From NCBI RefSeq assembly GCF_000253055.1, contig NC_016070.1:210001-242000 (forward strand): a DNA stretch of 32,000 nt. Direction: 5' to 3'. Made by a program: the position numbers and the translations under genes. The DNA comes from Thermoproteus tenax Kra 1 (lineage in GTDB: Archaea > Thermoproteota > Thermoprotei > Thermoproteales > Thermoproteaceae). Of the stretch, positions 9,442 through 25,076 are shown piece by piece. The notes below the pieces were generated by a model, which was not told the origin of the DNA, did not search any database, and was given only the letters and a program-made list of their open reading frames with translations. Positions within the stretch are counted from its first letter, which is position 1, and every line of letters starts with the position of its first letter.

Positions 9442-10191
9442 TCAGCTCTTTCCGTGGAACTCTCGGCTGTCCCCTACAGCTCCTCCGAATTGCACGGCGC
9501 CTAGCCCAACCCCGCGGCTCTTGCCCAAGCCCAGAAAGTTGGCAAGTGAAACGTAGTACGAGAGCTTGTCCATGTATCTGTCGTCCTGTACCACATACTT
9601 CGCGGTGCCGTAGAAGCCGTAGAGAGACCTCCTTCCGTCGTACTTTACCTTCACGACGCAACTGGGCCTGTGGCACCGTAGGTCGGCAAGGTCGACATAT
9701 TCATACACCCAGCGGAGGAAGTTCCGATCGAGCTTCTCGACAAGCCCGAGCTTATACGCCGTTATGACGAGCCACTTGAAGACGCGGAGCGGCTCGGGGA
9801 GGAACGCCAGCTTGGCCCTCCTCCTCTCCTTGGTCTTAACGGCGAACTGCACAGGCGTTATGGTCTCGAGAACGAGGCGGTTTGCCCCGACGTCTTTCGG
9901 CTCAAACCAGCGCACGGCGACGTCTTCGACGGCCACGCGGGCTCTGCCCAACGCCACGACGTCCGGCCTCTCGGCCGGCGGCTCCCGCGTCACGTAGACC
10001 ACCTCCACCTGCGTCCCCGGCGGATAGGCGACGGGCCGCCCCCACACAGGCCTCCCCTGGACAATGGGCGGCCAGACGGACAGCGCCTTGATTCCGCGCG
10101 AGGTCAGCAGGCCGTGCACAAGGCGGGGCGTCCAGCCGGCGAGCGCCAGGGGATCCAGCGCGTAGCCCCTGAGCGCCACCCTGAATATCAT
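9442..10191 (-). CDS. cas6: Cas6 CRISPR repeat endoribonuclease
   Basis: The internal ATG at 10191 forms an ATGA overlap with the stop of cas3''. The product begins 'MIFRVALRGYAL...' and has the C-terminal glycine-rich loop 'LGLGKSRGVGLGAV' typical of Cas6. Confidence 0.78.
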   Translation of the reverse strand: MIFRVALRGYALDPLALAGWTPRLVHGLLTSRGIKALSVWPPIVQGRPVWGRPVAYPPGTQVEVVYVTREPPAERPDVVALGRARVAVEDVAVRWFEPKDVGANRLVLETITPVQFAVKTKERRRAKLAFLPEPLRVFKWLVITAYKLGLVEKLDRNFLRWVYEYVDLADLRCHRPSCVVKVKYDGRRSLYGFYGTAKYVVQDDRYMDKLSYYVSLANFLGLGKSRGVGLGAVQFGGAVGDSREFHGKS

Positions 10192-10766
10192 CTCCTGTTC
10201 CTCGACGCCACCTCGTAGTCGCAGTCGCTGAGAAGGCCGAGTAGCGCCATCCCGGCGTATCTGGCCGGGCCTTCTAGGGCTTCTAGGAAGTCGCGACTCA
10301 CCGCCGAGTCGTAGATGTCGTCTTCGGCGTCGCGGAACAGAAGGTTGAGCGCCTCGTTGAAGAGCTCGGTCTCCGGTCTCCAGCTGATTGTAATTTTGCA
10401 CCTCGGCTGAAATGTTACCTTGCCCAAGGGCTGGAGCTCCTTGAAGGAGTAGTGGTGCCTAGCGACGGCATACACGGCAAGCCTTCTGATCCTCCAATCG
10501 GCGCTGTCGAGCGCTTTTTGTACAGCCACGGCGGATTTGGCCTCGTGGTGCGGGAAGTACCTATCTGCGTCCTTATACTTCCTGTCCGCCTTCCCAACGT
10601 CGTGTGCATAGCCCACGAACACGATTAAGTCTCTAGCCAGCGCCTCCTCTACGCCGAGGACCCGCGCCAGCTTGGGCGCCAGCCACCTCCCCCTCGCCGC
10701 CATACACGACGCGACCTCCTCCAGATGCAGTTCGAGGGGCTCTCCAGGGCCTGCGAGACACGTCAT
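10188..10766 (-). CDS. cas3'': Cas3'' HD nuclease
   Basis: The ATG at 10766 forms an ATGA overlap with the cas3' stop. HD motifs 'GYAHDVGKADRKY', 'FPHHEAKS' and 'VARHHYS'. Confidence 0.82.
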   Translation of the reverse strand: MTCLAGPGEPLELHLEEVASCMAARGRWLAPKLARVLGVEEALARDLIVFVGYAHDVGKADRKYKDADRYFPHHEAKSAVAVQKALDSADWRIRRLAVYAVARHHYSFKELQPLGKVTFQPRCKITISWRPETELFNEALNLLFRDAEDDIYDSAVSRDFLEALEGPARYAGMALLGLLSDCDYEVASRNRR

Positions 10767-12238
10767 ACCCCCTCTCCGCACTTCTTGAGCACAGCCCCAA
10801 GCCCCTCTCTGTATTTCACAACGCGTATCCTCGGCACATCACCGTGCTCAGCGACGGCGTCAAGGAGCCACCTCATCAGTTCCCCGCCTTCGTAGCTACG
10901 GGGCGGCTCAATCCGCCTTTCTCCGACATACGCCTCAAACTCCAGCTGTTCCAGCCTGTCCAACGGGACTGTGAAGGATTCCTCGGGCCCCTCCCCCACC
11001 TCCGCCTCCAGCAGGGCGTGGCGGACGAAGGAGCCGCCCTCCTTCAACAACTTTTTCCTCAAACGGCCTGTGTCCACCCTCTCCTCCTTCATGACCGTCT
11101 CCAGAAACCAGAAGTGCCTCTCGTCCACCTCGGTCTCCCCTCGGAGGAGGTGCATGTAGCTGTCCGGCTTGTGCGGGAGACGCCAGTTCTTGACCTTGAG
11201 GAGCTTCTCATCGACCTCGCCGATGAAGTATATCTCGCCTACGCAGCTCTCCCTGTTTCTGCAGACGCGCCCTACCCGTTGCACGACCCGCTCCACCTCG
11301 TCGGCTTCGGTTATCAACACGTCGAAGTCTACGTCGACGCCGGCCCCAATCGCGTCTGTGCCCACCACGATCTGCGCCTTATCGAGCTCGCGCTCAGCCC
11401 TCTCGCGGTCTCTCCGCGTCATGAGGGAGTGCACCGCCGGCGCCCCCAGCGTCTCGGAGAGGCGCTGGACTCTACAGACGTCGTTAACTATCACGAGCAC
11501 CCTCTTCCCTTCCTCCGCTTTGCGCCTCGCCACCTCCTCTATATTGTCGACCCTCCCCACCTTGTAAGTTACGTTCGACATCCGCCGCTCGAACTCCGGA
11601 TCGGCGACTTTGACGTCGTCGCCCCTCTCCTCGTCTCTATCCCCAAGCGACACAAACCTAAAGCCCTTGAATACATCCCTCTTCCACTCGCCAAGCGTTG
11701 CCGACATGACGACGGTGGGCACGCCGAGCTCCTTGAGGAACCGCACGGCCGCCTTTACTGCGGCGAGCTCCTTCCTGGAGCCAGCTGCCATATGCGCCTC
11801 GTCTAGGAAGACGCACGAGGGGTAGATGTAGGCGAGAGGTATGTGGTACCTCACCGACGGTCTCTCGGACTTGTAGAACTTCCACATCTCCGCCACGGGG
11901 ACCTTCGCCAGATTGTGGACGAAGGAGTCCAGCGTCGTGAGGACGTACTCCTCGCGGAAGTACGGATCCTTCTCGTATCTGTCCCTGAGGAGGACGTCGC
12001 CGTCTTGATACGCGAACTTTATATCGGGGTGAGCAGAGGCGTACCTCTCGATCTGCTTCCTAATTAGAGCTCTCAGGGGCATGACGTGGATCGCCTTGCT
12101 GCAGAGGCCCTCCTCCCTCAGAGCCTTGTAGAACAGCGGCGCGGCGTAGGTCTTCCCGTATCCCGTCGGAAGCTCCAGGACGATCCTCGAGACGCCCGCG
12201 CGCGCCAGCTCGAGCCCCCTCTCCACCGCCCTACGCAT
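10763..12238 (-). CDS. cas3': Cas3' DEAD/DEAH-box helicase
   Basis: The ATG at 12238 (MRRAVERGL...) overlaps the upstream gene's end by 8 nt. Walker A 'LELPTGYGKTY', 'VFLDEAHM' (DEAH) and 'VVMSATL'. The 105-codon extension in the track ORF is R/G/S-rich and overlaps the upstream gene. Confidence 0.88.
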   Translation of the reverse strand: MRRAVERGLELARAGVSRIVLELPTGYGKTYAAPLFYKALREEGLCSKAIHVMPLRALIRKQIERYASAHPDIKFAYQDGDVLLRDRYEKDPYFREEYVLTTLDSFVHNLAKVPVAEMWKFYKSERPSVRYHIPLAYIYPSCVFLDEAHMAAGSRKELAAVKAAVRFLKELGVPTVVMSATLGEWKRDVFKGFRFVSLGDRDEERGDDVKVADPEFERRMSNVTYKVGRVDNIEEVARRKAEEGKRVLVIVNDVCRVQRLSETLGAPAVHSLMTRRDRERAERELDKAQIVVGTDAIGAGVDVDFDVLITEADEVERVVQRVGRVCRNRESCVGEIYFIGEVDEKLLKVKNWRLPHKPDSYMHLLRGETEVDERHFWFLETVMKEERVDTGRLRKKLLKEGGSFVRHALLEAEVGEGPEESFTVPLDRLEQLEFEAYVGERRIEPPRSYEGGELMRWLLDAVAEHGDVPRIRVVKYREGLGAVLKKCGEGV

Positions 12239-13160
12239 GGCCGAAGAGCGCGCCGAGCGCCCTCCTCTCGCCCTCGGACAGCCCCTTGCTGGCCAACATG
12301 CTCCTCGCCACCTGGTAGAGCCGCCCCCAGTCCTCGGCGACTCTCCACCTCCCGTCGCCTTCTCCATACATCTCGGAGAGAGATGTGGCGCTCCAGATGG
12401 CCGATGCGGCAGGCTCGACGTAGTCCGACCCCGACTCCACGAGCTCGACGAAAAACCATGCGACGCGGCGCATCCTAGAGAGCGCCTCCACAGGCAGTGC
12501 GGTGGCCGTGTAGTAGCTCTCTCCGCCGACGAAAAGCCTCCCCGAAACCCCACCGAGCCTCAGCACGACGAGAGAAGCCGCGTACAGGAGGAGGGCAAGC
12601 CCGCCCAAGTTAGGCGCACGCCGCCACACCCTGTCGTTGACGTCCCACAGATCCCCAGCCGCAGTCCGGTCCTCCACGTCTACAAAGACGTGGTACCACC
12701 TGTCTCCTATCCTCACCCTAGTGAGCCTGTCGAAGGCATCGGCGACTTTTAAAACCGCCCTAGCGATGCCGAAAACCTTCCTCGCCTCTTTGTAGAAGAA
12801 CCGCCCGTCGAGATGCACGAACTCCTTGCTCTCCAAAAGCCCAGAGCTCTGCGAAAAGCTCTCCACAGTCTCAAAGTCCTCCCTCTCCAAGAGCAAGCTC
12901 TGGATGTCGGCCCCACCCTTCCGTTGCTTGCTACGTTGCTGAGCCTTCCTCCTTTCAAGCACAGACTCGATGAAGCTGTTGTACTCCTCGATATAGTAGT
13001 CGATGTCGTCCCACTTCCAGATTTCGGCCCCGGTGGCCATGTAGGAGAGGAGACCGGCCTTGTACACCGCGGAGAGGTGGATGAACTGAGACGCGCTCCG
13101 TAGATCAATTGTTACTAATGTATCGACTCCAGAAGATCTGCCTTTCTTAGCTCCTGGCAT
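12231..13160 (-). CDS. Putative type I-A large subunit (Cas8a-like; Csa4/Csx9-type), assigned mainly by position
   Basis: 309-aa ORF lying between cas5a and cas3' and overlapping both neighbours. I recognise no motif with certainty. Confidence 0.5.
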   Translation of the reverse strand: MPGAKKGRSSGVDTLVTIDLRSASQFIHLSAVYKAGLLSYMATGAEIWKWDDIDYYIEEYNSFIESVLERRKAQQRSKQRKGGADIQSLLLEREDFETVESFSQSSGLLESKEFVHLDGRFFYKEARKVFGIARAVLKVADAFDRLTRVRIGDRWYHVFVDVEDRTAAGDLWDVNDRVWRRAPNLGGLALLLYAASLVVLRLGGVSGRLFVGGESYYTATALPVEALSRMRRVAWFFVELVESGSDYVEPAASAIWSATSLSEMYGEGDGRWRVAEDWGRLYQVARSMLASKGLSEGERRALGALFGHA

Positions 13161-13929
13161 ACTCCTTCGGCAACAGGGCGTAGAGCTCTTTTTCCACTTC
13201 CGGCACGATTTTCACCGCCGTGTATCCCTTCGCTGGCCTTACTCTGATGTAGCCCATCGGCGGAGGGACGTAAAAGGGTTGCCTCTCCGCGTTCAGCCCA
13301 AGGCGCGGATCAAAGAAGTATTCCTCTCTGCATTGAGCCGTCACCTGGCCGTAGTACGGCACCGCGGTACACTCAGAAGCCCAATCAGCCGGGATGTAGA
13401 AGCGCGTCTCTACCTCCCTAGCCCCGAGGTCCTCTGCCGTGAACTTGAGGGGAGTCGCAGCGACCAGCCCCTCCTTCTGCCCGACCCGGTAGACATACGG
13501 GGCCAGCTTCTCTGCCTCGCCGCCTGAGACCAGGAGGTAGGCGGAGTCCCAGAAGTATACCTCGCGCCGCGACCCAACTCCCAAAAAGTTCTGTATCAAG
13601 TCCCGCGCGGTCATCCCGCTCTCGACCACCTTGTCCTCTCTGCCCTTAAGCACCATCTCTATGGCCTTGGGGAGCTTCTTCAGCCTGCCCGGCTTCTGGG
13701 TCATAAAGGTGTAGTGTCTGTAGAGCCCGACCCCCTCGGTATACGGCGGCGCCCAGAATAGGACGAAGTCGGCCCGGGGCGCGTAGAACCGCTCCTCCGG
13801 TCTCACAGCGACCGCGCCCAAGGCGCCCAGTAGCGTGGTAGGCGGCGGGAGGAGCGGCCCCGCCCCGTGCTCAAGGAAGGCCGGCTTGGAGACGAAGGGG
13901 GAGAAAAAATCCAGCTTTACCAACATCAT
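13147..13929 (-). CDS. cas5: Cas5a
   Basis: 'MMLVKLDFFSPFVSKPAFLEHGAGPLLPPPTTLLGALGAVAV' is a typical Cas5 N-terminus. ATGA overlap with the cas7 stop. Confidence 0.78.
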   Translation of the reverse strand: MMLVKLDFFSPFVSKPAFLEHGAGPLLPPPTTLLGALGAVAVRPEERFYAPRADFVLFWAPPYTEGVGLYRHYTFMTQKPGRLKKLPKAIEMVLKGREDKVVESGMTARDLIQNFLGVGSRREVYFWDSAYLLVSGGEAEKLAPYVYRVGQKEGLVAATPLKFTAEDLGAREVETRFYIPADWASECTAVPYYGQVTAQCREEYFFDPRLGLNAERQPFYVPPPMGYIRVRPAKGYTAVKIVPEVEKELYALLPKEYARS

Positions 13930-14861
13930 TCTTCGAAGTACTCAAGCACCCGCTCCTTTGCCCAGTCTATGAGCTCCTCCAACGTAGACAGGCCCGAGTC
14001 ACATGACGTTATCCCCTCGCGGTCGAAGCACGACAGCTCTAACATATCATACAGCGACTTCATCTTCTCCACGCGGGCTTTATTCAAGGCCCAGTAGTCG
14101 CCGTAGCGCGGCGGAGACACCATGAAGGGGTGGGGGTCTGCGACAGCGGCGACGCCGCCAAGAGGCTCGAAAGCAGGCAGATACCGCGCCTTCTTCGCGC
14201 CAAAAAGCATACCGGAGTAGAGAAGCTTCAGAGCGTCAAAGGCTAACTCGGCCCTTTCAAGCCAATCGTCCACGTCATCTCCGTCCTCCAACCTACCGAT
14301 TTTCATCACGTCTATCGCGACAGCTTGAATGTATATGGCCGTGCCGCTCTCGATAGTGAACGGTCTCTGTGCGTCGGGGTTCTGGAGGTTGTAGCGGACG
14401 TGGAACTGCGGCGTGATGACGCCCCTCGCGCTGGAGGTGTCCGGAAGCATGTAGCTGAACATCACCGCGCTCGTCCTCTTGACGGCGGATCCCTTCTCGC
14501 CGCCGCCGGCCTCCTTCGTCGCCATGAAGCCCGTGATGTCCTCCACGACGCAAGTCTTCACTCTGTCGTCGTGCCCAATGTCAGCTCTATCCGCACGCTT
14601 GAAGAAGCCGCCGATCTTCTCATAGCTCGCGCACTCATCACAGACCGGCAATTTCCTCTCCGCTGCGAGCTTGACAAGCGCAGCCATGTAGCCATAGGAA
14701 ATGGACTGTCCCGAGACGCCGGGAGCCGCCGTGATGCGATAGCCGTCGTCCTCGCGGATGAGGACAGGGACAGTCCTGTGCCTGGCGTAGTTCCCCACAG
14801 TCTCGACCATGTTGAGGGCCTCGACCTCCACTCGGAACCGGAAGGCGAACGACACAAACAT
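13926..14861 (-). CDS. cas7: Cas7 (Csa2/DevR family) backbone subunit
   Basis: 'VEALNMVETVGNYARHR', 'GVSGQSISYGYM', 'CVVEDITGFM' and 'KRTSAVMFSYMLP' fit the Csa2 family pattern. Confidence 0.88.
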   Translation of the reverse strand: MFVSFAFRFRVEVEALNMVETVGNYARHRTVPVLIREDDGYRITAAPGVSGQSISYGYMAALVKLAAERKLPVCDECASYEKIGGFFKRADRADIGHDDRVKTCVVEDITGFMATKEAGGGEKGSAVKRTSAVMFSYMLPDTSSARGVITPQFHVRYNLQNPDAQRPFTIESGTAIYIQAVAIDVMKIGRLEDGDDVDDWLERAELAFDALKLLYSGMLFGAKKARYLPAFEPLGGVAAVADPHPFMVSPPRYGDYWALNKARVEKMKSLYDMLELSCFDREGITSCDSGLSTLEELIDWAKERVLEYFEE

Positions 14862-15269: not shown

Positions 15270-16899
15270 CCTTCAAATCTCTATCTGAGATTCAATAGCT
15301 GGATGGGGATTGGCGCATGCGCTTGGCTGGAACCCCCTTCAAATCTCTATCTGAGATTCCTTGCTCATAGTCGAAGCAATACATCTTGGGACGGCGACCT
15401 CCTCCTTCAAATCTCTATCTGAGATTCCTCGACTGCGTCGAACTTCATATCGCGCTCAACGCGCACGTACCTTCAAATCTCTATCTGAGATTCCGCTCGG
15501 TTGGACACGTGGACTCGATAGCTTGGCGCATCTGCCTTCAAATCTCTATCTGAGATTCAGATCCATGTGCCGATCTTCGTGTTGCCCGTCTCGTCGAATA
15601 TCCTTCAAATCTCTATCTGAGATTCATAACAAGATCAACCTTGTCGCCAATGAGCTCGCTAAGCAAGGGCCTTCAAATCTCTATCTGAGATTCGAGAACA
15701 TCGCAATAAAGATAACGGAGGAACAGCTACGCCCTTCAAATCTCTATCTGAGATTCCGCCGTACTTCTTCAGCACCTCCTTCACCCGTTCCTTCAGAAAC
15801 CTTCAAATCTCTATCTGAGATTCGTGCAGATATGTGAACAAGCCGTACGCGAAGCCGGTCAGGATAAGCCTTCAAATCTCTATCTGAGATTCGGTCCGTC
15901 TCGATTCGGGATTGGCTGTGATAGTGACAAAAGACCTTCAAATCTCTATCTGAGATTCCAGAAGAGCTCGAACTTTACGACCTTGCGTCCGATATATTCG
16001 TACCTTCAAATCTCTATCTGAGATTCGGCGATTTCAAATACCGCTATGAGGCGATATCCTACTGGGTCCTTCAAATCTCTATCTGAGATTCGAGTAGAGG
16101 TACCCTCCGTCGACGACCGCCCCCTGCGTGATGCTCAGTTGCCTTCAAATCTCTATCTGAGATTCAGGTGTAGTCGGTATAGCTGATGCCGTTGCACTGC
16201 ACCTGGTACCTTCAAATCTCTATCTGAGATTCACGATCTCGCCATGCTTGAGACGAAGCTTAGGTTGGGCTTTCCCTTCAAATCTCTATCTGAGATTCTG
16301 GAGCGTATTTCGCAATACGAGGATGCCGCACATATATCCAATCCTTCAAATCTCTATCTGAGATTCAGCAATCCGCCGCGGGTCGGCGCATGCCAACACA
16401 GCGTCCAACCTTCAAATCTCTATCTGAGATTCAATTGGAGGGAAACCACGGCCGTGCTGACAGACGCCGGCAACCTTCAAATCTCTATCTGAGATTCCCT
16501 GTATTGCCGGCCGTCCGGCCCCTCCACGACGAAGAAGTTCCTTCAAATCTCTATCTGAGATTCATTGCTGATAGTGTTCCTGCTAGTTGTCATTTGGCCT
16601 ATACTAAGCCTTCAAATCTCTATCTGAGATTCCCAGAGTGCTCGATGAGGCGGGCATAGACAGGTACTCCATCACCGACCTTCAAATCTCTATCTGAGAT
16701 TCGTATAGCCGCTCACAGGGGTGAACGATACAGACTGTGCGCCGCCTTCAAATCTCTATCTGAGATTCTGTTTAGGGAGAAGATTAGGGAGAAAAATTGA
16801 AAGAGAAACCTTCAAATCTCTATCTGAGATTCACTATCTCGATGTGAACAACATATGCATCAATGTCGGCGCCGGCCTTCAAATCTCTATCTGAGATTC
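15270..16899 (-). CRISPR. CRISPR array: 25 apparently identical 24-nt repeats and 24 spacers of 39-50 nt
   Basis: The plus-strand repeat is CCTTCAAATCTCTATCTGAGATTC. The first repeat is at 15270-15293 and the last at 16876-16899. Hand-measured spacer lengths sum to 1030 nt, which matches the array span. The reverse complement, GAATCTCAGATAGAGATTTGAAGG, resembles crenarchaeal type I-A repeats (GAATC...ATTGAAAG), so I infer minus-strand transcription with the leader on the right. Confidence 0.97.
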
Positions 16900-17250
16900 C
16901 GGGTATTGTTGTCTTTGTTTCTACGAGCTTTTAAGCTTTTTTCTCACGAGACTGACGTTGATCTCGGCGGACTCTTGAGGTGGCATGATAGCAGTTTTGT
17001 CTATTTTCCGCGGCCGGCTTCTGTCTCAGATAGTTGAAAGTGTGTCTTTGGGGTTCGGCGCCGCCATCCGCCGCGCCTCCGCACGACGATTTATATGCGG
17101 GATCCCCGCTTGACAAAAACACAACGGCGGAGGAGTAGAACGATTTTACAGAAGGAAAGGGCAAGTTGCACGACGATTTATAAACGCCGTGGTCTATATA
17201 GATCTCCTTTCAGTTATCTAGGTTTCTGGTCTTGAAACTCAGTGTTGAGA
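16900..17250 (-). promoter_or_regulatory. Putative CRISPR leader with a TATA-like element
   Basis: The minus strand reads 'gagaaaaaagcttaaaagctcg' (plus 16928-16943), about 30-45 nt from the leader-proximal repeat. A 15-nt motif, gcacgacgatttata, occurs twice (17081-17095 and 17168-17182). The extent of the leader is a guess. Confidence 0.45.
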
Positions 17251-18536
17251 GGATGTAGTGCTAGTTGTGGTGTGTTATGGTTTTGTATGTTGGCGCTGTT
17301 GGGTCTGGGTTTTTGCGGGTGTTGGTGGACGTTCTAGGCCGGTGGTGTTGCGCTTTACATCGCCTCTGGTAGTGTTTTTATTTGGAGGGGGTGAGTTTCA
17401 GGAGGGTGAGGTTGTTGAGGTTGTGCGGAGGTTTCTAGTGGGGGCTGGCTACATGTTGGCGTTTTTGGCGTCAGGACGGGACTGACGTTGTGGCGTATAG
17501 GGGGGCTTTTGGTTGTCGAGATGAGGGGTGTGCCTACTGGTGTTAAGGTTAGGGGGCGTGGGTATGCCTAGGAGTAAAGCGGCGGTGCGTCAGTAGCTTT
17601 GGAATTGGCCTGCGGAGGTGGTGGCCGAGCTTATGGAGCATGAGTACGAGTGGGCGGTTGGCTGAGAGGGGTAGTGAGGCAGCTTAGGGAGAGAGTGGAG
17701 GTGCCGTGTCGAAGGTGAGGTGGGTTGGCGCTTTTGGCTATCATGGGGAGTACGTCCGCGTGTTTAAGAAGAGAGGACACGCGATAGCTAGGTGTGGGTA
17801 CGAGATCTGACTGGCGAGAAAAGATGGGATACAAATGCTGATACCCGGCCGCGTCTAGCTGTGTTGCCCTCGGCGTAGGCAAGCCCAAGGTCTGGGATTT
17901 AGGGCACTATGTGGCGCTATTGTCATTGGGCCAGCTTTGGCACGGAGCTAGACCTCCTCATGGAGGTAGCCTCTTGGAAACACGGTGATGTACTGCCGAC
18001 GTCAAGCAGTTCTATGCGTAGTTGTGGCGGCCGCTGTCTCCAGAGGATATTGTTACACTCCGCGTGTTAAATCCCGCCTTGGCTGCTGGAGGGCTCCGGT
18101 GGGCGCCCGCACTTAGCCTGTCTCCATCACGCCGGTTGCGCCCAGTGAGCCTACCGGGGGTATTACGGAGCGTTGACCCATCCGGCTGTTCGGCGGGCCG
18201 CGGCTGGGGACCGCCTTTTATGTGCTACACCACCTCGGGGGGCTCTCACCTCGACGCCGCACCTCTCTGCGACTTCGGAGCCGCATCGTTGTCAACGCTG
18301 TGGAAGCTGTCCCCGATTCTTTCAATGGTCCGGAGTGGGACTACCGGCTCTGTTCCGCCGACCGGCGGCGTGGACAAGTTACCACCCCCGCCTCTGGACT
18401 AAGACCTCGTCGACTGCGCGTTATCTCAGAGAGGGTGGCAAACCGTGATCTGACCGGCGGCTGGGAAGTGGGAGGATGTCGTGTTAACGCCCCTGCCTGC
18501 GCCTCTTATGTTGAGTACGATTGGCCACGGCGGGGC

Positions 18537-18875
18537 CTATATCCTGACGCTCCTCCTCATTAGGTTGGCCATGAGTTTCGCCAGCTCTTCGTAGGTCTGG
18601 GCCACGTTCTCGTTTAGAGCGGCGAGTATCTGTTTGACCTCGGCGAGGTCCTTCCCGATGTTGTCCAGCTTTCTATCTACATCATCTAGTTTTTTGTTCG
18701 TATCGTCTAGCTTTCTGTTCATGTCGCCCATCATCTTGACGATGACGAGGAGGAGCGCCGTCTGGAAGTCCTCCCTCGAGATCTTCTTCTGCAGATAGGC
18801 CTGCACAGCGGTCTCTAGGGCCTCCTCGGCGGCCTTGCCCAGAACAGCCGCGATCAAGTTCTCAGCCACATCCAA
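18537..18875 (-). CDS. Small coiled-coil protein with tandem 'KLDD/KLDN' heptad-like repeats; function unknown
   Basis: TTG start with 'gcttatatgg' (minus strand) about 20 nt upstream. The sequence contains '...MNRKLDDTNKKLDDVDRKLDNIGKDLAEVKQIL...'. Confidence 0.6.
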   Translation of the reverse strand: MDVAENLIAAVLGKAAEEALETAVQAYLQKKISREDFQTALLLVIVKMMGDMNRKLDDTNKKLDDVDRKLDNIGKDLAEVKQILAALNENVAQTYEELAKLMANLMRRSVRI

Positions 18876-19143
18876 TCCGCCGCCCCTCCATATAAGCCTT
18901 TCGGGTGCAGATCCCTCTGCCAGCGGCTGCCGCCTTTGACATTACAACCGAAGGCCTCGCCCTATAGGGCGGGGATTGACTCTATATTTTTCATGGCGAA
19001 GAGGGCTGAGAGGGGCCTAGATGGCGCGCTCCGTACGGCGGCCAACGGCGGATGGCCCCCGCATGAGCGGGGAGGAGATCAGTATACGTTCTAAATCTTA
19101 AGAATCTTAAGATAAGCTCTTTTTAACGGGCGTTCATCTTTTT

Positions 19144-19998
19144 GTGGAGACAAGGGAGTATGTCACTCTGCTTCACGGAGCTTGGTCGAAGTGGGATAGG
19201 ATAAAGCGCTTAGTGTATAGGGAGCTGGGGGTGAGGAATACTGAGGAGCTCATCCGGCGGTTCGTGGACGTAGAGAGCTGCCGGCCGTTGGACGTGGAGA
19301 CTCTGGCGTCGGCGTTGCGCAAGTTCGTCGAGCCGGCCGACCCCGGCGCCTTCGCCACGCCCTTCTTCGACCCCCGCTACCCATGCGAGCTCCTGCGGTA
19401 CCCCGCCTATGGAGACGTGCTCTACCCGCCCCTCATGCTCTACTGGAGCAGGGAGTTCAACGCCAACGAGCGGCCGGCGGTGGCGGTGGTTGGGACGCGG
19501 AGGTGCTCCAGCTGGGGGAGAAAGACGGCGAGGGAGCTCGGCAGAGCTCTGGCGTCTAGGGGCTACGCCGTCGTGACCGGGCTCGCCGAGTGTGTAGACG
19601 CAGAGGCGGCGCGCGGCGCTCTAGATGCCGGCGGAATAGTCGTGGGCGTGAGGCCGTGGCTGAGGCCGCTCGAGCTCCCCAGAGAGTCTGCGCCGTTGGC
19701 CAAGAGGGTTGTTATCGTCAGCGAGCGGCTGGAGAAGCCGAGGGGGGACGTGAGGCGGCTCTACTTCCTCCGCAACAGGATAATAGCGGGGATGGCCAAG
19801 GCGGTGGTGGTCGTGGAGGCGCGGGAGGGCGGCGGGACGATGCACCAGATAGAGCTGGGACTGAGGCGGGGGAAGCCCGTCTATATAATGAAGCCCGCCT
19901 CTGAGGACTACCTGCCCGCCTACAAGGCCTTCTTAGAGAAGGGCGCCGAGGAGGTAGAGGACATCGCGCAGCTCCTACGCTATGTACAGAGGGCTTGA
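19144..19998 (+). CDS. dprA: DprA/Smf-like (SLOG/Rossmann) DNA-processing protein
   Basis: 'VAVVGTRRCSSWGRKTARELGRALASRGYAVVTGLAECVDAEAARGALDAGG', 'FLRNRIIAGMAKAVVVVEAREGGGTMHQIELGLRRGKPVYIM' matches the DprA core pattern (VGsR...SGlA.GiD...F..RNRii.gl....vvvEa...sG). GTG start with 'ctttttaac' about 20 nt upstream. Confidence 0.8.
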   Translation: METREYVTLLHGAWSKWDRIKRLVYRELGVRNTEELIRRFVDVESCRPLDVETLASALRKFVEPADPGAFATPFFDPRYPCELLRYPAYGDVLYPPLMLYWSREFNANERPAVAVVGTRRCSSWGRKTARELGRALASRGYAVVTGLAECVDAEAARGALDAGGIVVGVRPWLRPLELPRESAPLAKRVVIVSERLEKPRGDVRRLYFLRNRIIAGMAKAVVVVEAREGGGTMHQIELGLRRGKPVYIMKPASEDYLPAYKAFLEKGAEEVEDIAQLLRYVQRA

Positions 19999-20743
19999 GC
20001 TCAGAAGAGACTTCATATACTACAATGGGAGCCCCCTGGCCAGGCTGATTACCAGCTTCCCCTCGCGGCGCTACTGCCCCATATGTGGCCACCCCCTCCC
20101 CAGGGGCTCAACAGAGTGCCCACTTCATGGTCCAGAGGAGAGAGTTGACGCCACTATGGCGGTAGGCCTCTACTACACTGTGAAAGCTGAGAGATCTGGC
20201 TACGGAAACCAACTCACTAACCTGATCCTCAGACTTAAGCAGTCTGTGGAAGAGGCGAAGCTGCTCGGCGCCGCCATGGCTCTGTTGGTCAGAGAGGGCG
20301 TATTCCGCATCAGCGACGTAGATGTCGTGACCTATGTCCCCAAGAGACGGGAGGAGTTCAAGGTAGACGAGGAGACGGGGAAGCGTTTTAATCAAGCGTA
20401 TCAGCTTGCACGTGCAGTCGCACATCACCTTCGTCTAGGCAAGCCGGTAAAGACGGTCAGAAAAGTGAAGCCTTTTACTCTTCAGGGGCTGAGGCGAGAT
20501 GAGAGGTATAGGTTAGCCTACGCCGGATATGAAGTGCTGCAGAATGTAGCCGACAGAATTCGGGACAAGAGCGTGCTTCTGGTTGACGACGTTAGGACGT
20601 CGGGCGCTACGGCCAACGCAATAGCGGCGAAGCTCAAAGAGCTCGGCGCTAAAAAGGTCTACCTCTTCGTGGCGGGGCGCACAGCAGAGATATCTATACT
20701 AAACGAGATATGCTCCAACGCAGAGGGTTGCGAAAAACCATAG
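19982..20743 (+). CDS. comF: ComF(C)-like phosphoribosyltransferase-fold protein with an N-terminal Zn-finger
   Basis: 'CPICGHPL...ECPLHG', 'KRFNQAYQLARAVA', 'LQGLRRDERYRL' and the PRPP-loop-like 'VLLVDDVRTSGATANAIAAKLKELGAKKVYLFVAGR'. Overlaps dprA by 17 nt. Confidence 0.8.
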   Translation: MYRGLELRRDFIYYNGSPLARLITSFPSRRYCPICGHPLPRGSTECPLHGPEERVDATMAVGLYYTVKAERSGYGNQLTNLILRLKQSVEEAKLLGAAMALLVREGVFRISDVDVVTYVPKRREEFKVDEETGKRFNQAYQLARAVAHHLRLGKPVKTVRKVKPFTLQGLRRDERYRLAYAGYEVLQNVADRIRDKSVLLVDDVRTSGATANAIAAKLKELGAKKVYLFVAGRTAEISILNEICSNAEGCEKP

Positions 20744-20858
20744 AACAAGTCGCGCCGATCTGGCTCCAAAGCTCAAACCTCTAGTCCACCTCTGAAATTT
20801 ATGGGACGCTATTTTGGTAAACCTATAGCCCGTACAAGTCAAAACGCCGCCGCCCAAT

Positions 20859-21092
20859 ATGGAAATAGAAATTTCATACAAGAGACGGCGGCGTCCACAA
20901 AGCGAAGAAAGGTCCCAAGCCATCGTCTTCAAAATACGACAAACCCTCAGATCGCTTTCGTTTGACGCGACTCCGAGACAGCCGTACAAGTTCTACTACA
21001 GAGGGAAGAAGCCACAGAAGGTGGGGGAGGTCCTGGAGGTCTCGGCTAAATGTAACAACGGCATGATCCCCATCGTGCCTTGGCCTCTATGA
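20859..21092 (+). CDS. Small basic protein (77 aa), unknown function; probably translationally coupled to the next gene
   Basis: Its TGA stop (21090-21092) overlaps the ATG at 21089 as ATGA. The sequence begins 'MEIEISYKRRRRPQSEERSQ...'. No family recognised. Confidence 0.45.
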   Translation: MEIEISYKRRRRPQSEERSQAIVFKIRQTLRSLSFDATPRQPYKFYYRGKKPQKVGEVLEVSAKCNNGMIPIVPWPL

Positions 21093-21883
21093 CGCTGGTA
21101 ATCGGCGTAGTCTGGCGGGCGGTGCAAGGCGTCTTGGTAGTCGCAGACACTAGATCCTCCATGGGCCCCGTGTTTCTAGAGGAGAGGAAGATACACCCCG
21201 TAAAGCGGGGCGGATTGGGATACGCTGTGTTAGCCGGCTCCGGGAACCCCAAGCTCGTGAAGAAGGGGTATAGGGTGATTGAAGAAACAATAGACAGCTG
21301 GATAGCACAAAACGGCACGCGCACGCCCAAGTCGCAGGAACTCAACAAAATGGTAGACACCGCAGAGCGGCTATTAATAGAAGAGCTCAAATTCCTTAGA
21401 GACAGAGGCATAGATCCGTGCGAAGACGGGTTATCAATACTGTGGGCGTCTGTCTCAGATGAAGGCGACCCACGCCTATACCACATAGACTGCACCGGCT
21501 TAGCAGACGCCAAACACGACAACCCAGGCTACGTCCTCTTGGGCAGGGGTCTCTACACCGGCGCCCTCGCCCTGCTTCGCCTGTTTAACTTCAGCCCAGA
21601 GCACACGTGGGACATGGGCCTTTACACCGCATTCATAATAGACCTAGTGTCCGAGGTCGACTCGTCGGTCTCCCCATTCCTAGGCGATTCCTACCTAATC
21701 AGAAAAGAGGGCGAAAAGGTAGTCCTTGGGCCTCTAAAGCCTGAGGCCTACCAGGAGTACAAGAAAAAGATCGCAAAGAGGAGAGAGGCTATCCAGTTGC
21801 TCTGGCAAGCCCTCGAGAGCGTCGACAACGAGGACGAAGTCATGGAAATACTGAGAGAAAAAATAAGACAGATACAGAAGTAG
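21089..21883 (+). CDS. Divergent proteasome-beta/HslV-like Ntn hydrolase with a helical C-terminal extension
   Basis: From the ATG at 21089 the product starts 'MTLVIGVVWRAVQGVLVVADTRSSMGPVFLEERKIHPV'. Thr follows the initiator Met directly. An Asp lies in the 'ADTR' strand and a Lys at about position 33 counted from Thr1, as in proteasome beta/HslV. 'VLLGRGLYTGA' sits where the GSG loop would be. Confidence 0.6.
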   Translation: MTLVIGVVWRAVQGVLVVADTRSSMGPVFLEERKIHPVKRGGLGYAVLAGSGNPKLVKKGYRVIEETIDSWIAQNGTRTPKSQELNKMVDTAERLLIEELKFLRDRGIDPCEDGLSILWASVSDEGDPRLYHIDCTGLADAKHDNPGYVLLGRGLYTGALALLRLFNFSPEHTWDMGLYTAFIIDLVSEVDSSVSPFLGDSYLIRKEGEKVVLGPLKPEAYQEYKKKIAKRREAIQLLWQALESVDNEDEVMEILREKIRQIQK

Positions 21884-21885
21884 AT

Positions 21886-22188
21886 ATGAATAACATAGAA
21901 CAAAAGAAGAAAGGAATGCGGGTTATTAAGATAGAAGGCGGCAGAATCGTGGCGAGCGAGGGGTTCCTAGAGGCCCTACGTAAATTGCGTTTCACAGTTG
22001 TAGAGGGAAGAGGCGTAGAGATCAAGGTAGGAGGATCCTTAGTAACGAACTACAGCACATACTACTATAACAAGGGAGATATTGTTGTGAGGACGACAGA
22101 CAGAGGTTCGGGCGATATATTAATACAAATAGACGACATTAAAAAGGGAAACAAGACGGAGAGAACGCCTGTCGGAGACCTAGTATGA
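21886..22188 (+). CDS. Hypothetical protein (100 aa)
   Basis: Starts 3 nt after the previous stop and forms an ATGA overlap with the next gene. AT-richer codon usage. No motif recognised. Confidence 0.5.
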   Translation: MNNIEQKKKGMRVIKIEGGRIVASEGFLEALRKLRFTVVEGRGVEIKVGGSLVTNYSTYYYNKGDIVVRTTDRGSGDILIQIDDIKKGNKTERTPVGDLV

Positions 22189-23111
22189 CCGTCAAACGGA
22201 CATACGGCGACCTCTATGGAGAATTGACAAAGTCGCGCGTCCAACAGCTCGTAGACGACGTAAAATGCCTCCTAGATATGATAGAGCGAGCTCAGGATAA
22301 AAACATCTTTAAGGAGCTACCACTATCGACCCTAAAGAAAGCCGCTGAAAAGGTAATGAATATAGCAAAGGGTTTGGGGTACAGCGCATCGTGTCGGCTG
22401 AATAGAGCTGTAACAGACCTCCCCTATGTCCTCTGTGGATTTATACCGCGGATAAGGCCCCACGGCGACATAACTTATGTTTTATATACGCTTAGAAACA
22501 CGCCGCTTAAGATAGCCCAGAGCATATATCCCTCTTTTAACCCAGACGACAGCTTTATCAAAAGCCTAGGGCTAGAGAAGTACCAACCCTTTGGCTCGCC
22601 CCCGATAAAGGAGGTGGAAGACTGGACAACTTTTATCTCTTTTAGAGATTACCCAAGATACTTCTATCTTAAAGAAGAGCCAGGTCGATACATGTCAGAA
22701 TTCAGAGCATATATAACAAATTCTCTTCCCGACGTCCCAATAACCTGTGATAGATCTGTGGGCGTCAGGATAGATGTAAACTTCGACAGCATAATAAACA
22801 ACACCACTATGCTAGGGACGGCGATATTGCTGTTATCCATAACCTCTGCAAGAGCTCTAATGTCCATTGGATTGAGGGAGTGTCCGATATCTAGTGTACT
22901 CACACATGGCATCGCCATGAATTACGACTCCTATTATAGACTCTATGAGTCCTCAAATGGGATATTATCTAAGCGTTGTGGGGAGTCAAGCTACAGGTTC
23001 TTGCTCGAAGATCTAGCACTACATGCAGAACAGATAGTCAAGGGGGATGTAGACATATTCTTCTCAAGAGGTAGCACAGGTACAGTATACCTAATAACTG
23101 CGATTTTGTGA
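22185..23111 (+). CDS. Hypothetical protein (308 aa)
   Basis: Operon position only (4-nt overlap upstream, 9-nt gap downstream). No motif recognised. Confidence 0.55.
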   Translation: MTVKRTYGDLYGELTKSRVQQLVDDVKCLLDMIERAQDKNIFKELPLSTLKKAAEKVMNIAKGLGYSASCRLNRAVTDLPYVLCGFIPRIRPHGDITYVLYTLRNTPLKIAQSIYPSFNPDDSFIKSLGLEKYQPFGSPPIKEVEDWTTFISFRDYPRYFYLKEEPGRYMSEFRAYITNSLPDVPITCDRSVGVRIDVNFDSIINNTTMLGTAILLLSITSARALMSIGLRECPISSVLTHGIAMNYDSYYRLYESSNGILSKRCGESSYRFLLEDLALHAEQIVKGDVDIFFSRGSTGTVYLITAIL

Positions 23112-23120
23112 TGAGAGCCT

Positions 23121-24449
23121 ATGAGTTTCCTGCTTCAAAAATTACGAGAGCACATCAGAAAAACCTACCAACCCGAGGTTCTGAGGGATCTGGAGAGTAG
23201 ACTTGGCCAAGTTGTGGAGAAGCTGGAGTCGGCGCCTGCCGTAGCCGTCCAAAGCGTCGAGTTCTACGAGATCGGGATGAGGATGCAGATTGCGGTGGGA
23301 GATGTAGATATCTACCACGTTGCCTACCCCAGCGATGTGAGCTTCCATCCAGTGGAGCTTTTGGAAGTCGGAATCCCCTTCGTTGGCATAAGTGATCAAG
23401 TTGAGATTTTTGAGCCCCCTCCGCCCGCGCGTCCTCTACCTGATGTAGAGGAGGTTGACCTAGTTGGCGCTCTCGGCATCCAGTGGGAGAGGGCGCCCCG
23501 TGAAGGCACCTTTCTCCTAGAACACAACGGTGGCGACGACTACTCCCTATCTCTGGGGCGAATCGCACTTGAGTTTTTCATTGCAGCCACTGGCAAGTTG
23601 GCCGATTTGAGGATTATAAAGGACGTATCAGAACTTGGTCTGATAGAGGAGGAGGGAGTTTACGTAATAAAAAGCGGGGTGGTAGACAGTAGCGCTTTAA
23701 GATTTATCGAGATTTTAAAACGGTTTAGTGGAAGAGGGCTTAGGTATATTGTGTTCAGCTTCAGCGAATCAGAGAGGTTGGAAAAGACGCTACGCGGGAT
23801 ATTGCGTCAGTATGTGAGAGTAAACAGTGACGCAGAGGCGAAAAAAGCTGTCCAGTGCTTGGCAACAGCCGCCTCAGGTCTCCACCCTACCCTTCGGTCT
23901 GGTCCGGCGTCTGATGATGTCTTCAACCGCTACTGGGAGTTCTACTGGGAACTTCTTGAGAATATGTACCGTGAAGCGAACCTAGAGTTCGATGTGCAAT
24001 CGCCAGGTGAAATAGAGACGGAGCACCACAGAATTTTGAAGGCCTATGTAGCGACTTACCTTAAACAAGAGAAAGAGTGTAAAAACATAAAAGTTGAAAG
24101 TTATAGTTGCAGAGGCTCTATCGTAGACATATATGCTGATGGATGTAAAGATGGCAAATCCTATATTGTAGATGTTAAAACTAGTATAGGCGCCAATCCC
24201 CTCGATGAAATAAGAGAAGTGATAGAGAAGTACCAAGCATGCGGCGATATAGTCGCCGTAGTCATGCGTCCTGTGGTAGTGGCCCTCTTTATCAGAGCAA
24301 TCGCCAGAATGCTCAACATGTTGAGAAGCATATCTACGGAGAAGGTAGTAGACATATGGATACCATCCTACGAAGAAAATAACAAACTTACATTATTAAC
24401 TATAAATGATTTTATACAAAAGCTTAAATTATGTAAAGAGAAGAATTAG
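23121..24449 (+). CDS. Hypothetical protein (442 aa) with a C-terminal PD-(D/E)xK-like nuclease motif
   Basis: 'EIETEHHRILKAYV...GSIVDIYADGCKDGKSYIVDVKTSIG' fits E...D...(D/E)xK spacing. The N-terminal two-thirds carry nothing I recognise. Confidence 0.55.
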   Translation: MSFLLQKLREHIRKTYQPEVLRDLESRLGQVVEKLESAPAVAVQSVEFYEIGMRMQIAVGDVDIYHVAYPSDVSFHPVELLEVGIPFVGISDQVEIFEPPPPARPLPDVEEVDLVGALGIQWERAPREGTFLLEHNGGDDYSLSLGRIALEFFIAATGKLADLRIIKDVSELGLIEEEGVYVIKSGVVDSSALRFIEILKRFSGRGLRYIVFSFSESERLEKTLRGILRQYVRVNSDAEAKKAVQCLATAASGLHPTLRSGPASDDVFNRYWEFYWELLENMYREANLEFDVQSPGEIETEHHRILKAYVATYLKQEKECKNIKVESYSCRGSIVDIYADGCKDGKSYIVDVKTSIGANPLDEIREVIEKYQACGDIVAVVMRPVVVALFIRAIARMLNMLRSISTEKVVDIWIPSYEENNKLTLLTINDFIQKLKLCKEKN

Positions 24450-24754
24450 TACTTTATCAACTTTCTCCTTGGGAATCCTTAGCCTTACTTGTAGGAAAAA
24501 CACCACTTCTTGGTTTCTCTTGACTAACGATGTGCCTATGAAATGTGGCAGCTCCATTTGGACTTAGCGTTCACGTAAGTGTCAAGATAGACGTCGGTCG
24601 CCATATAGCCGTGGAGGCGTCGCAAGGTTAGCTCCGGCCGGCATAAGTTCATAGCTGGATACGCTCAAGGCGGCCGCAGACGCTTGGCAAGGTCTGCAGG
24701 GAGGGTTCCGCTGGGGGGTCTGGAAGAGAGCAGTTTACGCTTCATGAAACCACT

Positions 24755-25076
24755 TCAAACGGCTCTTACATTGAACCTTCCCCTTGAGGCCTCAATAGCG
24801 GTTTCGGCCGCCGCGGGCTCCTGCTCCGCTATGTCAACCAGCTCCCAACCGTCTGTGGGAAGCGTGGATGGGAGTAAGGGCTTGTCGGCCACGGCCTTCT
24901 TCAGCTCCTCAGGCAAGTCCTCAATGTATATGCCGTCCGCAACGCTCACGTCGAAGTTTACACCGCCGAAGGGGGGAGAAGCCGATCTCCTTCACGTTTA
25001 GTATCAGGATCTTTAGCTTAACCACTGCGCCATCGGAGAGCTTGATGGTGCCTACTCCAATCTCGCCAAGGCTCAC
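24755..25076 (-). pseudogene. Small conserved-looking gene interrupted by a 1-nt frameshift in a G6/C6 run
   Basis: Hand translation from the GTG at 25076 gives MSLGEIGVGTIKLSDGAVVKLKILILNVKEIGFSP. At the homopolymer (plus 24971-24976) the frame shifts and continues as FGGVNFDVSVADGIYIEDLPEELKK...RAV* (track ORF 24755..24949). The span is 322 nt, which is 3n+1. A TATA-like 'aaataa' lies about 21-26 nt upstream. Confidence 0.6.

Follow-up and report, generated by a model that had tools for sequence, protein, structure and literature searches.

A proteasome-homologous protease gene with recurrent partner genes in archaea: a candidate conflict module in a low-GC cassette of Thermoproteus tenax

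We analyzed a stretch of 32,000 nucleotides from the archaeon Thermoproteus tenax Kra 1 (contig NC_016070.1, positions 210,001 to 242,000), referred to below as the window, which contains a cassette of five open reading frames (ORFs) on the + strand, g1 to g5 (TTX_0244-0248; CCC80920-24). The second gene, g2, encodes a predicted threonine protease of the N-terminal nucleophile (Ntn) type that is homologous to proteasome subunits. The fifth, g5, encodes a protein assigned by sequence comparison to a family, designated B, whose genes recur beside homologs of g2 in other archaea. We conclude that g2 and g5, probably together with g4, are the T. tenax copy of a recurrent, horizontally mobile archaeal module. 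The features of the cassette are as follows, positions being counted from the first nucleotide of the window.

20859-21092, + strand: g1 (TTX_0244), 77 aa, small basic ORF
21089-21883, + strand: g2 (TTX_0245), 264 aa, proteasome-homologous Thr1 Ntn protease (predicted)
21886-22188, + strand: g3 (TTX_0246), 100 aa (90 aa in the RefSeq version), orphan between the protease gene and g4
22185-23111, + strand: g4 (TTX_0247), 308 aa, orphan by sequence, lying immediately 5' of g5, the family-B gene
23121-24449, + strand: g5 (TTX_0248), 442 aa, short member of family B
24021-24446, + strand: C-terminal domain of g5 (residues 301-442), candidate PD-(D/E)xK-like fold
20744-24449, no strand: low-GC island including the cassette, delimited by calculation of the G+C content (GC) and of its value at third codon positions (GC3)

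ATGA overlaps join g1 to g2 (21089-21092) and g3 to g4 (22185-22188), and gaps of 2 and 9 nt separate g2 from g3 and g4 from g5, respectively. An initial annotation of this DNA, made from its letters alone, had described the same packing of five + strand ORFs and was in error only for the g2/g3 gap, given as 3 nt. Its impression, gained by eye, that the cassette is richer in AT than the flanking genes was borne out by calculation, since GC was 47.8% in the cassette versus 60.0% in the remaining window (computed without the CRISPR array described below), and the 3.6-kb segment of lowest GC within the 32 kb begins at position 21001. GC3 was 0.49 to 0.50 for g3 to g5, 0.67 for g2, and 0.62 for g1, compared to 0.63 to 0.89 for the 20 other genes that were measured. 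The deviation was strongest in g3 to g5 and intermediate in g1, g2, and the preceding phosphoribosyltransferase (PRTase) gene (GC3 of 0.63). The cassette is therefore foreign in composition, which supports the horizontal gene transfer that had been proposed for it. Searches within the window revealed no tRNA gene, Rfam family, flanking att-like or direct repeat, or integrase gene.

Two further observations concern the island. Its composition falls into two parts, namely g2 (21089-21883; GC3 of 0.67) and g3 to g5 (21886-24449; 0.49 to 0.50), a split that might stem from separate histories of acquisition or from differing constraints. In addition, positions 24707-25052 of the - strand encode, in two frames, a frameshifted relative (~39% identity, E~1e-16) of a 158-aa uncharacterized protein found at one of the loci encoding a g2 homolog (L013:10093-10569, - strand). 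This sequence has native GC (0.58), lies at the right edge of the island, and is probably a pseudogene at its right border.

Profile searches placed g2 just outside the recognized proteasome family. The Pfam Proteasome model (PF00227) matched with E=5e-4 and 20.2 bits, under the gathering cutoff of 22.4; NCBIfam and PADLOC gave no match, and sequence and profile searches of the PDB returned nothing significant. Homologs of g2 were found in archaea (36 sequences, 35 to 53% identity), with hosts among the Thermoprotei, Bathyarchaeia, Nitrososphaerota, and other archaea. An alignment of 33 sequences showed no variation at D20, K34, and G50 and next to none at M1-T2 (T2 in >90% of the sequences). 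Residues T2, D20, K34, and G50 correspond to proteasome Thr1, Asp17, Lys33, and the oxyanion Gly47, respectively, K34 being residue 33 of the mature chain. Because nearly all members of the family begin with M-T-L-V, the ATG at 21089 is the start of g2, and a propeptide is absent.

The AlphaFold2 (AF2) model of g2 obtained with the 33-sequence alignment had a predicted local distance difference test score (pLDDT) of 92.9 and a predicted template modeling score (pTM) of 0.89. Comparison of this model with the PDB by Foldseek gave >1,200 matches at E<=1e-3, with 20S beta subunits and Anbu ranking first (E~4e-11); the identity of g2 to these proteins is 14 to 19% over the aligned positions. Anbu aligned over 251 columns, including the C-terminal helix, with a query-normalized TM-score of 0.68. 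The model contains the beta-sheet core flanked by helices H1 to H4 that characterizes proteasome-like Ntn hydrolases according to Fuchs, Alva and Lupas 2021 (PMC8665760), and g2 possesses the catalytic triad and the oxyanion glycine equivalent to Gly47 that the same authors ascribe to these proteins. The tail of g2, of ~65 aa, is modeled as a beta-hairpin (residues 201-215) followed by two long helices (218-244 and 248-263). Based on the conserved residues, the fold recovered by AF2 and Foldseek, and the subthreshold Pfam score, g2 is a noncanonical proteasome homolog with a complete set of catalytic residues and predicted activity, in agreement with the initial annotation, which had recognized a peptidase of the proteasome/HslV type from its Thr1/Asp/Lys33 layout, set it apart from canonical PsmB, and noted a helical tail, estimated at ~70 aa.

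PsmB, the archaeal 20S beta subunit, shares with g2 both the fold and the positions of the catalytic triad. Unlike g2, which is propeptide-free and carries a two-helix tail, PsmB has a propeptide that is removed autocatalytically and lacks a long C-terminal extension; g2 also stands apart from it by its Pfam score, its low identity, and its position in an acquired low-GC island. As in HslUV and Anbu, the beta-type subunit stands alone, without alpha subunits, and, as in HslV, no propeptide needs to be removed to expose Thr1. In contrast to HslUV, an HslU-type ATPase gene is not found beside g2 in the window. The ATP-grasp, alpha-E, and transglutaminase genes of the Anbu operon were absent from the Ntn neighborhoods that were examined, the partners there belonging to novel families.

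The family of g2 has been catalogued. Fuchs et al. 2021 described 22 groups of proteasome homologs, and neither the genomic context nor co-occurrence patterns were informative in their study, in which an AAA+ partner was not found either. Homologs of their "ACC" group resemble g2, since they are archaeal and propeptide-free, have equivalents of Thr1, Asp17, Lys33, and Gly47, and end with a long C-terminal helical extension comparable to H5 of Anbu. The g2 family displays the traits of this group, including its occurrence in archaea such as Crenarchaeota and a predicted C-terminal coiled coil. It is probable that g2 belongs to the ACC group; the ACC representative WP_161937350.1 was absent from the clusters that were inspected. 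Unlike in the account of Fuchs et al. 2021, the family analyzed here has recurrent partners, which are B together with C, D, or B', or A, and rarely an AAA+ ATPase.

These partners were identified by analysis of 108 loci encoding a g2 homolog (numbered with the prefix L), which originated from the contigs encoding the homologs, from a scan in which each species was represented by one genome (22 loci), and from a scan of metagenomes (80 loci). All ORFs flanking the Ntn genes were clustered, and occurrences were counted on 95 nonredundant loci. Five neighbor families recurred, B (~560 to 700 aa), A (~415 aa), C (~390 aa), D (~215 aa), and B' (~335 aa), none of which had a match in Pfam or PADLOC; sequence and profile searches of the PDB with A, B, C, and the C-terminal domain of B retrieved nothing significant. 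Family B was present at 32 of the 95 loci, alone (14 loci), with C (11 loci), or with D (7 loci). The remaining partners were A (14 loci), C only (2 loci), and D only (1 locus). No partner was detected at 46 of the 95 loci, many of which are short contigs; when at least 2.5 kb was available on both flanks, a partner was present at 16 of 27 loci. The nearest partner overlapped the Ntn gene or was located within 100 nt of it at 35 of 50 partner loci, and 26 of these 35 had both genes on the same strand. Typical gene orders were C-B-NTN, NTN-C-B, NTN-x-C-B, D-B-NTN, NTN-D-B, B'-B-NTN, and NTN-A, and the order found in T. tenax, NTN-g3-g4-B, fits this series.

B-type partners were distributed over 7 of the 12 sequence clusters of Ntn homologs, with hosts among the Acidilobaceae, the Desulfurococcales, other Thermoproteota, and Bathyarchaeia; A-type partners were concentrated in two clusters, and the cluster nearest to T. 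tenax was mostly solitary. The B gene was usually preceded directly by a member of the C/D/B' superfamily. The three latter families, whose members always lie immediately 5' of B, were united because C is related both to B' (hhalign probability of 96%, E=2.6e-9) and to D (95.7%, E=8.5e-9). A relationship of B' to B was rejected, the BLAST single linkage of the two being an artifact. Family A directly adjoined the protease gene at 14 loci (L018:7609-8856, + strand; L021:6685-7935, + strand; L023:8834-10060, - strand; and 11 others) and has an Hjc-like N-terminal motif, E..G..V.R..HDVLV..IFYECTG. Despite a similar D...E motif, a relationship of A to B or to g5 could not be demonstrated statistically. 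At 3 of the 95 loci, C-B-AAA operons lie beside the Ntn protease gene, with the AAA+ gene in the last position (L011:1714-3048, L067:743-2059, and L075:2791-4095, all on the - strand). The encoded ATPases are of the classical type (PF00004, 4e-47), and their best PADLOC match is IetA (8.5e-41). Together, these results indicate that the conserved unit consists of the protease, B, and an accessory protein of the C/D/B' type, or of the protease and A. The protease-B core is conserved, in contrast to the whole set of five genes. The search for the same neighborhood in other archaea, suggested by the initial annotation, was positive for homologs of g2 and g5, adjacent at at least 32 of the 95 loci, many of them also encoding established defense proteins, and negative for g1, g3, and the set of five.

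The assignment of g5 to family B emerged only through the clustering of the neighbors of Ntn homologs, as a single-sequence search with g5 (5.8-billion word index) returned g5 itself and nothing else. By BLASTP, g5 matched the B members of L069 (30% identity over 153 aa, E=4.6e-8) and L067 (E=5e-7), and hhalign against a four-sequence B profile gave E=9.8e-6 with a probability of 82.5% over 135 columns. In a 22-sequence alignment (A7), g5 shares with the other members the central region of the FSQxFGFLI type (FSGRGLRYIVF in g5) and the C-terminal domain, with an identity of just 13 to 20% over the full length. These comparisons identify g5 as a diverged, short member of family B. A search of a large database with the profile of the B alignment added a single further member.

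The N-terminal part of the polypeptide encoded by g5 is poorly modeled; it is followed by a central alpha/beta region and, at the C terminus, by a nuclease-like domain. The motif residues of this domain are E301/H303...K307 in a helix, D336 in a strand, and D351-V-K353 in another strand. D336 is invariant in A7 and in a 20-sequence alignment of the C-terminal domain (A9), and K307 is conserved in every sequence of A7 and in nearly every one of A9. The sequence of g5 conforms to the PD-(D/E)xK signature, that is, D...(D/E)-x-K on consecutive strands preceded by an acidic residue in helix 1. The last motif is D-V-K-T in g5 versus E-V-E-T in nearly all other B members, and the usual replacement of the lysine by glutamate makes catalytic competence across the family doubtful. 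The AF2 model of g5, built from two sequences (g5 and P0039), shows in the C-terminal domain an order of elements, alpha-beta-beta-beta-alpha-beta (H301-318, E322-327, E335-340, E348-352, H360-370, and E379-381), that matches the PD-(D/E)xK core, D336 opening strand 2 and D351-x-K353 closing strand 3; at a mean pLDDT of 38, this agreement is only suggestive. Subthreshold Pfam matches were obtained for three B members, two to HSDR_N_2 in the region of the motif (E=0.012 and 0.055) and the third to the YhcG PDDEXK family (E=0.0059). An endonuclease-like fold of the C-terminal domain of B is therefore likely but unproven. For the nuclease-like gene announced by the initial annotation, the E301...D336...D351-V-K353 motif is indeed present, and neither the confidence of the model nor the prevailing glutamate of the family lends the idea support.

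The product of g4 had no relative other than itself in a phmmer search of 1.84 billion representatives. By hhalign, C, D, and B' each gave their best match on one and the same segment of g4 (residues ~92-131), corresponding to the core motif of the superfamily, with E=1.2e-3 (19.6% probability, 147 columns) for B', 0.05 for C, and 0.11 for D. Out of 3,000 shuffled sequences, 1, 11, and 50 equaled or exceeded the hidden Markov model score of g4 with the B', D, and C profiles, respectively, compared to 1,552 with the unrelated B profile, so that the p value for the link of g4 to the superfamily is about 7e-4. The location of g4, directly 5' of the B gene, is the slot held by C, D, or B' elsewhere. 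Because of this position and of the weak similarity in the core motif, g4 is probably a diverged accessory component of the C/D/B' type. A relationship of g4 to A, B, or the f121 ORFs was rejected.

No relative of g1 or g3 was detected in the 108 related loci, Pfam, NCBIfam, PHROGs, or PADLOC, and tblastn of g1, g3, g4, and g5 against the 108 loci gave no matches. In the clustering, g1 was a singleton, and the cluster of g3 was confined to T. tenax. The orphan status previously attributed to g1, g3, and g4 thus stands. Two candidate relationships were dismissed. The resemblance of g3 to family A extends over 16 residues, and profile tests of g3 against A and B were no better than those of shuffled sequences. 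At L010, L036, and L038, an Ntn gene is followed by ORFs of 96 and 318 aa, similar in size to g3 and g4, which encode unrelated Cys-rich and GNAT-like proteins. We consider g1 to be probably outside the conserved module; g1 and g3 may be lineage-specific genes or mis-called ORFs.

The notable or recurrent neighbors of the protease loci, other than the partners, are mostly defense genes. Type I restriction R subunits form one neighbor family present at 8 loci (REase_I, 4.7e-113, for the member at L101). Further neighbors include a PDC-S37/Hhe-like helicase, Tiamat TmtA, Hma DUF1156 methylase with a DUF499 ATPase, HerA-NurA, and a Dam-like methylase. A three-gene set with a short prokaryotic Argonaute (PF02171, 2.9e-15) directly adjoins the Ntn gene at L018 (1763-5223) and at L056 (2303-5746); because L056, L058, and L059 are near-identical copies, this set is present at two distinct loci. 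PIN-MazE pairs flank the Ntn homolog of L005, and serine recombinase genes are found near the Ntn gene at L044, L019/L093, and L013. Phage records, PLSDB plasmids, and 2.9 million viral contigs yielded no Ntn homolog, and the viral structural matches to g2 were distant phage proteasome homologs only.

The T. tenax cassette itself has a comparable setting. Upstream of it are an McrB-like AAA_5 ATPase gene (6971-8326), type I-A cas genes encoding Csa2/Cas7, Cas3, and Cas6 (9442-14861), and a CRISPR array (~15270-16900), in which the 24-nt repeat CCTTCAAATCTCTATCTGAGATTC occurs at least 25 times with a period of 63 to 74 nt; this array is responsible for the window's second dip in GC. Immediately upstream, a DprA/SLOG gene (19144-19998, + strand) and a zinc-ribbon PRTase gene (19982-20743, + strand) overlap by 17 nt. 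This pair matched ShosA (1e-31) and ShosT (1.5e-8) in PADLOC, as well as PsyrA/PsyrT, and DNA_processg_A (4.7e-33) and Pribosyltran (6.9e-6) in Pfam. The ShosA and ShosT matches indicate a Shosta-like defense pair, here in an archaeon. Neither gene of this pair was found near the Ntn homologs of the 108 related loci, and the pair is an independent neighbor, separate from the cassette. With the CRISPR array, the type I-A cas genes, the McrB-like ATPase gene, and the Shosta-like pair, the cassette lies in a defense island, as expected from the context that the initial annotation had outlined, down to the position directly after the DprA/PRTase pair and the lack of an integrase gene.

Since the module is patchily distributed across phyla, foreign in composition, endowed with fast-diverging and exchangeable partners, and surrounded by defense genes, we favor the view that it is a conflict-system module, and we infer its role in defense from gene neighborhood. 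The conflict system initially proposed for the five genes agrees with the defense island and with the protease-B pairing, and disagrees with the lack of conservation of the five-gene unit. In the proposed mechanism, the module would consist of an Ntn threonine protease, a large family-B protein, and a C/D/B' accessory protein encoded directly upstream of B, occasionally with an IetA-like AAA+ ATPase. The protease would be active after plain removal of Met and would likely be oligomeric through its coiled-coil-like tail. The B protein, which combines a conserved central alpha/beta domain with a variable N-terminal region and a putative restriction-endonuclease-like domain at the C terminus, would bind or cut nucleic acid, and the Ntn protease would gate it. 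Gating might result from the cleavage of B or of the accessory protein, which would free an activity upon infection, as in pro-nuclease/protease defense pairs, or from the continuous degradation of one component, as in protease-controlled toxin-antitoxin modules. By analogy with such systems, the most economical mechanism would be one in which proteolysis controls a nuclease-like effector or sensor, with a physical or proteolytic link between the two proteins. For T. tenax, we see an even chance that g2 and g5, probably with g4, form a protease-controlled, nuclease-like antiviral or antiplasmid effector module. More tentatively, and with less confidence, a proteasome-family threonine protease could act, as regulator or as executor, in an antiviral system that is widespread among archaea and comprises B and C/D/B', or A, and sometimes an AAA+ ATPase.

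Several observations weigh against these proposals. The survey of Fuchs et al. 2021 (PMC8665760), based on a much smaller set of homologs, revealed no informative context. Among the well-flanked Ntn loci, 11 of 27 lacked a nearby partner, including most of the cluster closest to T. tenax. For the nuclease fold, the g5 model has a mean pLDDT of 38, neither g5 nor B has a relative above threshold in the PDB or Pfam, and g5 itself lacks even the subthreshold nuclease matches of other members. Many B members, with EVET in place of DVKT, may be noncatalytic. Finally, the similarity linking g4 to the C/D/B' superfamily is weak.

These observations leave some room for a nonimmune module dedicated to housekeeping or stress proteolysis, on the pattern of HslUV or the Anbu operon, in which B, C/D, and g4 would be regulators, caps, assembly factors, or specific substrates of a compartmentalized proteasome homolog, and the endonuclease-like domain would be a noncatalytic scaffold or a nucleic acid-binding module. 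Anbu is among the closest structural matches of g2, with its C-terminal helix aligned, the signature lysine is missing from most B proteins (EVET), an ATPase of the AAA+ unfoldase type is occasionally present, and many Ntn homologs are solitary. We nevertheless regard this explanation as rather unlikely in view of the patchy distribution, foreign composition, and variable genomic positions of the module, of the recurrence of defense genes and toxin-antitoxin pairs nearby, and of partners that diverge fast and are swapped (A versus B; C versus D versus B'), as is typical of conflict systems. Still less probable, in our opinion, is a cargo or addiction module, similar to toxin-antitoxin systems, in which the protease, instead of protecting the host, would stabilize an integrated mobile element by degrading a labile antitoxin-like component. 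The low-GC island, the frameshifted gene at its right edge, the serine recombinases near the Ntn gene at L044, L019/L093, and L013, and the PIN-MazE pairs around the L005 homolog would suit such an element, which is difficult to reconcile with a window devoid of integrase genes, tRNA genes, and att-like repeats and with the lack of Ntn homologs in viral contigs, phage records, and PLSDB plasmids. Lastly, it is very unlikely that the genes have no collective function, g2 being a solitary proteasome homolog, g1 and g3 to g5 unrelated, decaying, or mis-called ORFs in AT-rich acquired DNA, and the similarity of g5 to B too weak to matter, since the absence of detectable relatives of g1, g3, and g4, the 13 to 20% full-length identity of g5 to B, the GC3 of g2 (0.67, versus ~0.50 for g3 to g5), and the mostly solitary closest Ntn cluster are outweighed by the significant BLASTP and profile scores linking g5 to B, by the invariant K307 and D336 common to both, by long intact ORFs with coupled start/stop overlaps, and by the exact C/D/B' slot and core motif match of g4.

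Under the favored interpretation as a conflict-system module, two known defense architectures invite comparison. IetAS reportedly is a defense system composed of an AAA+ ATPase, IetA, and a subtilase-like protease, IetS. The C-B-AAA loci have a similar ATPase-plus-protease architecture, and the ATPases of L011, L067, and L075 match IetA models. They differ from IetAS by an Ntn protease instead of a subtilase and by B and C/D, which have no counterpart in that system. The T. tenax cassette contains no AAA+ or subtilase gene according to Pfam and PADLOC and does not qualify as IetAS.

Protease-gated pro-nuclease pairs have been described in bacterial immunity (Hachiman HamMAB, AVAST, and the caspase-nuclease "canu"), and the proteolytic unmasking of the nuclease is a tested mechanism (Tuck et al. 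2025; PMC12799240). As in these pairs, g2 is a protease gene accompanied, amid defense genes, by a separately encoded predicted nuclease, g5. The pairs of Tuck et al. 2025 differ in that they are made of a trypsin-like or caspase protease and a nuclease of the metallo-beta-lactamase fold, instead of an archaeal Ntn hydrolase and an at best PD-(D/E)xK-like protein. No trypsin, caspase, or metallo-beta-lactamase family match was obtained for any cassette protein with Pfam or PADLOC. The likeness is one of functional analogy, without sequence relationship.

The initial annotation had found no described system with this pairing, and our searches concur. PADLOC v2 contains no model for the cassette proteins or the partner families, Fuchs et al. 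2021 offer no informative context, and literature searches retrieved neither a description of the protease-B pairing nor a link of proteasome homologs to defense islands or antiphage systems. The protease family was already catalogued but uncharacterized; its linkage to B, C/D/B', A, and an AAA+ partner and its defense-island setting are new with respect to the catalogue, PADLOC v2, and the searched literature. This linkage provides one group of archaeal proteasome homologs with a testable context, namely, defined partners, a protein that may be its substrate or effector, and, in some cases, an AAA+ ATPase. If the proposed role is correct, it would be the first link of the proteasome fold to prokaryotic immunity and the first biological role assigned to one of the 22 "orphan" groups of proteasome homologs. 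Pairing of proteases with nucleases is an emerging theme in bacterial immunity, and a version based on the proteasome fold would show independent convergence. Archaeal immunity beyond CRISPR and restriction-modification is sparsely known, and the module, found across Thermoproteota, Bathyarchaeia, and Nitrososphaerota and repeatedly amid defense genes, is a promising candidate for a system specific to archaea. The four newly defined families lacking relatives in Pfam, PADLOC, or the PDB (A, B, and C/D/B') are targets for structural work.

Minor observations were made in the upstream part of the window. No Pfam match was obtained for the ORF at 5810-6967, which adjoins the McrB-like gene. A Pfam GP88 protein (PF17338, E=6e-30) is encoded at 8356-9261 (+ strand), in the interval separating the McrB-like AAA_5 gene from cas6. 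The region extending from the CRISPR array to the DprA gene (17000-19140) contains only short ORFs without a Pfam match (e.g., 18022-18402) and displays a strong swing in GC skew, and a 21-nt tandem repeat is located at 18681-18720.

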